Of a DNA stretch of 64,000 bases, positions 12,108-13,068 are shown in pieces (within the stretch, counting starts at the first letter, position 1; each line of letters begins with the position of its first letter). The notes under the pieces are model-generated. The model worked only from the letters and a program-made list of their open reading frames with translations. It made no database searches and was not told the origin of the DNA. Source of the DNA: Escherichia coli (GTDB taxonomy: Bacteria > Pseudomonadota > Gammaproteobacteria > Enterobacterales > Enterobacteriaceae); NCBI RefSeq assembly GCF_046105845.1, contig NZ_CP151004.1. The stretch is one strand, 5' to 3'. A program made the translations under genes and the position numbers.

Positions 12108-12334
12108 CGACCAAAAACCTCTTTGCGTCACATTTTTACAACAATTATGGCAGAGAAGATTAATGCCATTGGAATGAAGAGAGTAACGAATGATTAAACT
12201 GGCTAAACCGAATGACGAAAAATTCTGGAAAACAGCACGCAATTTCGTCAGGTGATTATTTTCGTCCCTAAGGAAACCACATAGGATGCTCACGGGTGCC
12301 TGAGACTTTCTGTTTTCAGGCTAACCGGGAATCA

Positions 12335-12395
12335 GAAAGACGAAGGCCCCGACCGATATTTCTATCAACCGAGGCCAACGAATGAACCTAGCAAT
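12335..12395 (-). ncRNA. sokB: Approximate position of SokB antisense RNA (antitoxin of hokB), inferred by locus architecture only
   Basis: hok/sok loci encode Sok antisense to the mok translation-initiation region; boundaries not determinable by eye. Confidence 0.3.
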
Positions 12396-12549
12396 TCAGA
12401 TCTTAGCCTCTTACCCGCCATCCGGCAAGGAGAAAGGCTATGAAGCACAACCCTCTGGTGGTGTGTCTGCTCATTATCTGTATTACGATTCTGACATTCA
12501 CACTCCTGACCCGACAAACGCTCTACGAACTGCGGTTCCGGGACGGTGA
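12382..12549 (+). CDS. mokB: MokB, overlapping reading frame that modulates hokB translation
   Basis: ATG at 12382, frame MNLAIQILASYPPSGKEKGYEAQPSGG... overlaps hokB in a different frame as in hok/mok loci. Confidence 0.65.
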   Translation: MNLAIQILASYPPSGKEKGYEAQPSGGVSAHYLYYDSDIHTPDPTNALRTAVPGR

Positions 12550-12589
12550 TAAGGAGGTGGCGGCGCTCATGGCCTGCACGTCCAGGTAA
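12440..12589 (+). CDS. hokB: HokB type I toxin (small membrane-depolarising peptide)
   Basis: 49-aa product MKHNPLVVCLLIICITILTFTLLTRQTLYELRFRDGDKEVAALMACTSR, canonical Hok family; missed by ORF track (<60 aa). Confidence 0.9.
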   Translation: MKHNPLVVCLLIICITILTFTLLTRQTLYELRFRDGDKEVAALMACTSR

Positions 12590-12653
12590 GGGCAAGCGCG
12601 GGGATTTTCCCCGCGCATCTGACTAGCGGATTCATTTTCTCATGGCACCCCTT

Positions 12654-12833
12654 TTACACTTCAGTAGTGCATGTTTTTTTCGATGCACTAATAGAACCAT
12701 CATTACAGACAAATTTGCCGCCTGCCGTACAGTGTGAGATCCCCCCTTTAGAACCAGAACAGGGTTTGCGCCCGGCATCGGCATAAAAGGAAACAAGCGC
12801 TCCCATAACCAAGATAAGTGCCAGTTTTTTCAT
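12654..12833 (-). CDS. ydcA: Small secreted/lipoprotein-like protein YdcA
   Basis: 59-aa product [59 protein letters not shown] with SD (ggaggt) upstream; missed by ORF track. Confidence 0.8.
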
Positions 12834-13003
12834 ATAACCTCCATGGTTTATCGAATCTTATGTTCGATTTGAACGTTATACGCTGGTTTATTTTGATACC
12901 GTTGATGAGATCAAAGATCGGGTGAATTGATTAAAGATAAGCCAGATGGACGTATGGACCAGGATTATGGTTTTATTTGTCATACAAATAAATATAATAG
13001 GCG

Positions 13004-13068
13004 CTTCCGATGTAGGCCCGTATTCTTCGCCTGTACCACGGGTCGGTTTTAGTACAGGCGTTTTCTTT
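13004..13068 (+). ncRNA. rydC: RydC small regulatory RNA (Hfq-dependent)
   Basis: cttccgatgtaggcccgtattcttcgcctgtaccacgggtcggttttagtacaggcgttttctt matches remembered RydC sequence nearly base-for-base; located between ydcA and cybB as in K-12. Confidence 0.85.

Follow-up and report, generated by a model that had tools for sequence, protein, structure and literature searches.

The closest described relatives of the locus reported here are the hok/sok (parB) system of plasmid R1 and the hokB locus of Escherichia coli K-12. For R1 hok it was described that the full-length mRNA is locked by pairing of the 5' tac element with the 3' fbi element, with the ucb box hiding the Shine-Dalgarno (SD) sequence of mok, and that slow trimming of the 3' end leads to a switch to tac/ucb and SDmok/dcb pairing, which permits translation as well as Sok binding (PMC9841398). 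In R1 the last stem-loop shields the truncated hok mRNA from 3' exonucleases, and substitutions weakening it abolish toxicity, an effect ascribed to exonuclease attack (PMC9841398). Whereas hok/sok of R1 serves plasmid maintenance, hokB is chromosomal and in K-12 tied to persistence: HokB is a pore-former with a link to Obg/(p)ppGpp-dependent persistence (PMC6094483), SokB blocks its translation, and the Tyr29 codon of K-12 HokB undergoes A-to-I mRNA editing, Y29C (PMC12214031). We analyzed the corresponding locus between trg and cybB in a stretch of 64,000 nucleotides from E. coli (NCBI RefSeq assembly GCF_046105845.1, contig NZ_CP151004.1), here referred to as the window. Positions are those of the window unless another locus is named.

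The gap between the start codon of trg (12041, minus strand) and the stop codon of cybB (13078) is 1036 bp in size. Its letters were read directly and its open reading frames (ORFs) were listed. A preliminary description of this DNA, made from the sequence alone, had pointed out that the gap looks empty in the ORF track and yet holds small genes, and all elements it named were present at or near the places it assigned to them. Almost certainly, the gap carries an ordinary E. coli small-gene cluster consisting of hokB/mokB/sokB, yncP, ydcA and rydC, which is intact in this strain. The components are:

12440-12589, plus strand: hokB toxin gene, 49 aa, with the SD sequence AGGAG at 12428-12432
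12523-12529, plus strand: CTACGAA motif with the Tyr29 codon TAC (12524-12526) of hokB, conserved here
12382-12549, plus strand: mokB leader ORF, 55 aa, overlapping the hokB start, with the SD sequence GAGG at 12371-12374, 7 nt upstream
12336-12392, minus strand: sokB antisense RNA gene, 57 nt, 5' end at 12392, complementary to the mokB SD sequence and start codon
12567-12635, minus strand: yncP, an ORF of 22 aa (MNPLVRCAGKIPALALTWTCRP), antisense to the 3' end of hokB and spanning the inverted repeat behind it
12654-12833, minus strand: ydcA, 59 aa here, with the SD sequence GGAGG at 12842-12838, 4 nt before the ATG
13004-13068, plus strand: RydC small RNA (sRNA), 65 nt, with a 5' seed, a pseudoknot built from helices S1 and S2, and a U-rich 3' tail
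12993-12998, plus strand: rydC -10 hexamer TATAAT, 5 nt before the +1, read from the sequence and identical in K-12

In the annotation of K-12 MG1655, cybB, rydC, ydcA, yncP, hokB, mokB, sokB and trg have the same relative order and orientation, so that the locus had rightly been called a known K-12 arrangement. The region was matched in 5416 of 5426 complete E. coli genomes with 95-99% identity, and the best genome match across 11 kb had 98.9% identity, so that the window belongs to an E. coli-like genome other than K-12. The cluster is thus already known; it is annotated and experimentally studied in K-12, and its anatomy shows no departure that hints at new biology.

The inventory of the preliminary description was correct for hokB, mokB, ydcA, RydC and the inverted repeat, but it missed yncP (12635-12567, minus strand) and left sokB unplaced. 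The interval it had drawn, 12330-13068, does hold the cluster genes, but the predicted 5' end of the hokB mRNA (12294) lies 36 nt before it. Coding and transcribed features cover 604 of the 1036 bp of the gap (58%) and 77% of that interval. Most of the region is therefore occupied, but the statement that nearly all of this 1 kb is functional went too far; the uncovered part is promoter or untranslated region (UTR) sequence. Two further ORFs, one of 76 aa (12365-12595, minus strand) and one of 53 aa (12946-13107, plus strand), were rejected as chance ORFs, having no family match and overlapping known features.

The identity of the genes is clear from profile and covariance-model searches. HokB matched Pfam PF01848 (HOK_GEF) with E=1.1e-23 and 83 bits (cutoff 22) over profile positions 2-42 of 42, and the NCBIfam Hok subfamily NF007279 with 100.8 bits (cutoff 73). 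The protein is identical to K-12 HokB (49/49), with three synonymous changes in the gene, which bears out the earlier reading of a canonical 49-aa Hok toxin. Given this identity to the pore-forming K-12 protein, membrane toxicity of HokB would be expected in this strain as well. A tblastn search of plasmids with HokB returned only 5 chromosome-like records, probably due to low-complexity masking; the R1-type comparator locus was obtained with R1 Hok as the query instead. An Rfam search of 10000-16000 (E up to 1) yielded exactly two matches, RF01794 and RF00505. The preliminary description had named a failure of Rfam or BLAST to recover Hok, Sok or RydC here as the result that would speak against it, and all three were recovered well above curated thresholds.

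The mok frame overlapping hok was likewise found, as an ORF with its own SD sequence. MokB keeps its K-12 length with a single substitution (H34Y) and gave no significant match in Pfam or NCBIfam profile searches. This is expected, because it is the translation of mok and not its product that matters (PMC9841398).

The sokB gene is identical to K-12 sokB (b4429) at 57 of 57 positions. It contains a terminator-like hairpin of 14 bp (12376..12345) followed by the T-rich tail TTCGTCTTTC, and the RNA folds with -22.2 kcal/mol (z=-3.7), leaving a free 5' tail of 12 nt. The RF01794 family, named 'sok antitoxin' in Rfam, matches the hok-sense strand from the mRNA leader to the hok ATG and not the antisense strand. 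The same was seen for K-12 hokB, hokC and hokE and for the R1-type plasmid, where the match again fell on the hok-sense strand and not on the strand of sokB, sokC or sokE. The plus-strand match is therefore the expected signature of such a locus and not a mis-orientation, and placing Sok from an RF01794 match needs care over the strand.

In the window the RF01794 (hok/sok leader) match covers 12294-12445 on the plus strand with 109.7 bits (threshold 59) and model positions 1-157. We took the 5' end of the hokB mRNA from model position 1, and set the 3' end just past the fold-back element. The elements of the transcript and the promoters proposed for it and for sokB are:

12294-12652, plus strand: predicted full-length mokB-hokB mRNA, from the Rfam model and the fold
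12282-12287, plus strand: putative hokB/mokB -10 hexamer TAGGAT, a weak match proposed by eye, 6 nt upstream of the predicted mRNA start
12294-12305, plus strand: tac-like 5' element GGGTGCCTGAGA, which in the full-length fold pairs with 12638-12650 and in the 3'-truncated one with 12344-12350
12344-12351, plus strand: ucb or anti-SD-like box AGGCCCCG, which in the full-length fold covers the mok SD by pairing with 12370-12376 and in the truncated fold pairs with the tac element
12406-12410, plus strand: dcb-like box GCCTC, which only in the truncated fold pairs with GAGGC (12371-12375) of the mok SD region
12596-12616, plus strand: GC-rich inverted repeat GCGCGGGGATTTTCCCCGCGC, starting 7 nt past the hokB stop codon
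12638-12650, plus strand: fbi-like fold-back element TCTCATGGCACCC, complementary to the 5' end of the mRNA
12400-12428, minus strand: putative sokB promoter TTGCCG, 17-nt spacer, TAAGAT, with the +1 7 nt downstream, proposed by eye

Folding of the full-length transcript (12294-12656) gave a minimum free energy (MFE) structure of -142.1 kcal/mol (z=-5.6), in which the 5' end closes onto the 3' end. Here, GGGUGCC (12294-12300) pairs with GGCACCC (12644-12650) and UGAGA (12301-12305) with UCUCA (12638-12642). In the same structure 12345-12351 cover the mok SD region, and 12626-12637 are bound to the mok start and the Sok target (12380-12392). When the last 35 nt were removed (12294-12621), the 5' end moved to 12344-12350, corresponding to tac/ucb pairing, and GAGGC (12371-12375) paired with GCCUC (12406-12410), corresponding to SDmok/dcb. 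In this truncated fold a hairpin loop holds CCUAGC, to which the first six nucleotides of SokB are complementary. As judged from these models, the switch in hokB is the one described for R1 hok.

The locus was also compared with both relatives. K-12 hokB (b4428), mokB (b1420) and sokB (b4429) occupy the same position between trg and ydcA and share the leader, the inverted repeat and the fold-back element; relative to K-12, the hokB mRNA of the window has two substitutions in the 3' UTR. An R1-type copy from an IncFII plasmid (locus L003) shares tac, ucb, the mok SD sequence, dcb and the overlapping mok and hok frames, as well as a GC-rich hairpin past the stop codon with fbi about 25-35 nt beyond. 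The column identity between the two in the alignment was approximately 74%. In contrast to the R1-type, about 19 nt of the first hairpin are missing from the leader of hokB, and the clear terminator hairpin that follows fbi in the R1-type has no counterpart in hokB. The R1-type mRNA (L003:233-630), folded as a control, likewise closed its 5' end onto its 3' end. Between the two loci 5 of the 7 pairs of the tac/fbi helix are changed on both sides (GGGUGCC/GGCACCC in hokB, GGCGCUU/AAGCGCC in the R1-type). Since these changes are compensatory, the helix is backed by covariation. The K-12 loci hokA, hokC and hokE were of limited use as comparators for tac and fbi, with IS150 splitting the hokA leader, IS186 located 20 bp past hokC, and the hokE stretch ending just past the gene.

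The GC-rich inverted repeat, whose presence after hokB had been noted earlier, folds to a stem of 9 bp with -19.5 kcal/mol (z=-3.6). By analogy with R1 it is probably the stem-loop that protects the 3' end of the processed (truncated) hokB mRNA. The fold-back element begins 22 nt beyond it. The R1-type hok carries GGCGGGC-GCAG-GCCCGCC in the same place with the fbi element about 27 nt later, and K-12 hokA has the hairpin GGCGGGAA/TTCCCGCC after its stop codon, followed by TCTCATTGCACCC in the place equivalent to fbi. A strong GC stem only 7 nt past a stop codon would also suit an intrinsic terminator of hokB, or a bidirectional one shared with ydcA-yncP; the mRNA would then end at the repeat and fold-back regulation would not exist. 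This explanation gains from the lack of a convincing terminator farther downstream. However, the sequence behind the repeat is ATCTGACT on the plus strand and TTGCCCTT on the minus strand, the T-run criterion failed, and the terminator scan called neither strand. On the minus strand the repeat moreover falls within the yncP ORF. Beyond it, the element 22 nt downstream complements the mRNA 5' end over 12 nt and covaries relative to R1, and both R1-type hok and hokA show the same hairpin with an fbi element after it. A terminator at this position is therefore rather unlikely, and we prefer the protective stem-loop. An AT-rich hairpin at 12666-12693 would be a poor candidate for the hokB terminator; it is weak (-9.6 kcal/mol), lacks a T-run and lies inside the ydcA coding region.

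For the processing pathway, the promoters, toxicity and regulation we rely on the work on plasmid R1 and K-12. On this analogy a mokB-hokB mRNA of about 360 nt would be transcribed at a low level from near 12294 and would initially be locked, with 12294-12305 paired to the fold-back element 12638-12650 so that the mok ribosome-binding site and the Sok target are masked. Slow 3'-to-5' trimming would take off about 35 nt and halt at the GC-rich stem-loop 12596-12616. The freed 5' end could then pair anew with the box at 12344-12350, exposing the mokB start region, and hokB would be translated via coupling to mokB. SokB (12392-12336) would pair over the mokB SD sequence and start codon and thereby block translation of mokB and hokB.

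Several points weigh against an intact locus regulated in this way. The MFE folds of 330-360 nt have ensemble frequencies of at most 0.0002 and are low-probability single structures. The 5' end of the hokB transcript stems from the Rfam model and its 3' end from the analogy with R1, and neither the terminator scan nor folding gave a canonical terminator after the fold-back element. A consensus promoter scan of 12000-13150 (threshold 9/12) found zero sigma-70 sites, so the promoters proposed for hokB, sokB and ydcA are weak matches by eye. That of sokB agrees with the consensus at 8 of 12 positions and thus falls under the threshold, and the TAGGAT hexamer of hokB is conserved in K-12 and strain ECCNB12-2, with three substitutions relative to K-12 lying between it and the +1. 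Finally, the hokB locus is dispensable, since it is lost or disrupted in some strains.

The last point leads to the question whether hokB is an inert relic here and only ydcA and rydC matter. In favor of a relic are the strains in which the leader is interrupted by IS150, trg-hokB carries a deletion or a partial duplication has occurred, and the description of four of the five hok loci of K-12 as inactivated (PMC12214031). In the window, however, all regulatory boxes, both ORFs and sokB are intact. HokB and SokB are moreover identical to those of K-12, where HokB is experimentally active (PMC6094483, PMC12214031). A relic is thus very improbable, and we hold to an intact hokB locus.

Variation of hokB among strains was observed in NZ_AP022064.1, NZ_CP176489.1 and NZ_CP144926.1, which carry three different lesions. 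In one of these strains trg is truncated and IS150 sits in the hokB leader, with the break near window position 12367; another has a deletion from the trg N-terminus into hokB. In the third, an insertion or duplication of about 150 bp gave rise to an additional Hok-family ORF, located upstream of hokB.

Antisense to the 3' end of hokB lies yncP. It is an annotated gene of K-12 (b4774), and PGAP calls it in many genomes. The peptide, for which there is no family model to score against, is identical to that of K-12 at 20 of 22 residues, the differences being L3P and K6R. It is among the experimentally verified novel small ORFs with a ribosome-profiling signal (PMC8921622), and the pairs yncP-hokB and ysaE-hokA were described as convergent excludons in MG1655 transcriptomes (PMC12288877). 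Like yncP, ysaE (b4793) opposite K-12 hokA is an ORF of 22-23 codons that starts near fbi and runs through the GC hairpin; the similarity of the two peptides is limited to what this hairpin encodes. In the K-12 stretch analyzed (L006), ysaE (23 aa) is located at 901-972 on the plus strand, antisense to the 3' end of hokA (949-1101, minus strand).

It is quite possible, if not our first choice, that yncP is not a functional gene and merely a frame left open antisense to the conserved 3' hairpin of hokB, in which case the cluster would have one part fewer. Both nucleotide differences from K-12 inside yncP alter the protein, the middle of the peptide (CAGKIPA) is the translated hairpin, and the similarity to ysaE opposite hokA is restricted to that same stretch. 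Set against this are the K-12 annotation, the place of yncP in the verified small-ORF list with ribosome profiling (PMC8921622) and the frame itself, which stays open in the window. We therefore keep yncP as a member of the cluster.

The distance from the ydcA stop to the yncP start is 18 nt here and 25 nt in K-12, because of a frameshift in ydcA described below. No terminator was found between the ydcA stop (12654) and the yncP start (12635). An RNA reading through from ydcA into yncP would be fully complementary to three parts of hokB, namely its 3' coding end, the 3' stem-loop and the fold-back element (12638-12650), and could constitute a second antisense layer on hokB that acts independently of SokB. 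We regard such a layer as improbable. If it existed, the read-through RNA could unlock or destroy stored full-length hokB mRNA, HokB-mediated dormancy would be tied to whatever signal induces ydcA, and the parallel arrangement of ysaE and hokA would make a second antisense layer general for chromosomal hok loci.

YdcA matched the NCBIfam equivalog NF007462 with 141.9 bits (cutoff 118) over residues 1-56. A local Pfam search gave no match for it, and homologues carry a precomputed PF27300. The 59-aa ORF with a good SD sequence, as noted in the preliminary description, is present, with GGAGG 4 nt upstream; the usual length is 57 aa, however, as in K-12 and in the nearest genome, and 59 aa is a private variant. 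A deletion of 1 nt (TT to T near 12666) changes the C-terminus from ...CTN* to ...CTTEV*. Relative to K-12 the protein thus differs by F9V, T12A and the altered C-terminus. With a 65-nt probe over the deletion, none of 4798 matching complete genomes was identical, the best differing by exactly one gap. The deletion is either a private mutation or a sequencing error. Together with a common RydC allele it is one of only two strain-specific points of the cluster.

The 3' end of ydcA (12654-12700, minus strand) is frameshift-prone. Other YdcA variants of 59-60 aa arise from a frameshift in an A7 run a few codons upstream, end in KKHALTEV and have lost the fourth cysteine. One cluster of this type comprises 96 member sequences on 181 contigs.

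By sequence, YdcA is predicted to be a small Sec-exported protein with four cysteines. A signal peptide and a strongly conserved core were recognized, and C25, C35, C43 and C55 are kept in 33 aligned sequences. Homologues are found in Escherichia, Citrobacter, Yersinia, Hafnia, Acinetobacter, Actinobacillus and others. The core C..KGGISHC...GKFVCNDGS gave a borderline phmmer match (E=9e-4) to chain AN of the Legionella Dot/Icm type IV secretion complex (7muc/7mud), with two repeats aligned. A Foldseek search against the PDB with the AlphaFold model, which is of moderate quality (pLDDT 74.5), gave no significant hit; the top hit was again Dot/Icm chain AN (E=0.3-0.6, 31-36 columns, 36-42% identity). 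A small disulfide domain shared by YdcA and this chain is possible.

The cluster ends next to cybB with RydC, for which the pseudoknot, the free seed, the UU steps and Hfq binding have been defined (PMC4337610). YieP represses RydC, the sRNA activates cfa, and in E. coli and Shigella the gene on its 5' side is usually ydcA (PMC11340327). Its presence here, as proposed before, follows from a full-length match to RF00505 (13004-13067, plus strand, 90.5 bits against a threshold of 48, E=1.5e-17, model positions 1-64 of 64). With RydC of E. coli and Salmonella the RNA shares the seed, the pseudoknot helices, the UU steps, the U-rich tail and the adjacency to cybB. Helix S1 forms 7 of 8 pairs and S2 9 of 9, both UU steps (U23/U24 and U46/U47) are kept, and the 3' end reads UUUUCUUU. 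The 5' seed CUUCCGAUGU is identical to K-12. A substitution relative to K-12, A13G, replaces the pair A13-U40 in S1 by G13-U40; the G13 allele is found in 1241 of 5410 complete genomes. Judging from its sequence, RydC of this strain would be a pseudoknot sRNA that depends on Hfq and activates cfa mRNA through its free 5' seed.

Some observations concern the surroundings of the cluster. A match to a sigma-28 (FliA)-type promoter, TAAGAAAT-N11-GCCGATGA, is located at 12081-12107 (minus strand) about 40 nt upstream of the trg start codon and explains some of the 'empty' 250 bp that separate trg from hokB. Two occurrences of the pattern TAAR-N15-GCCGATRA were counted in the window, compared with 0.01 expected. 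A second sigma-28-like match, TAAAGGAG-N11-GCCGATAA, is found at 33787-33813 (minus strand), about 136 nt upstream of MicC. Other known sRNAs of the window at gathering threshold are MicC (33531-33651, minus strand), FnrS (38447-38564, minus strand) and McaS (45431-45526, plus strand). A gapC homologue (13797-14798, plus strand) is an intact ORF of 333 aa here and in most other E. coli genomes examined; in K-12 MG1655 gapC is annotated as a pseudogene.

Beyond annotation quality the significance of the locus is small, all of its parts being annotated in K-12 and experimentally studied. A scan for long ORFs only leaves about 1 kb seemingly empty, though a toxin-antitoxin system, two small proteins and a regulatory RNA are encoded there. 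Because the locus is intact here, HokB-dependent persistence and the control of cfa by RydC would be expected to run in this strain as in K-12.

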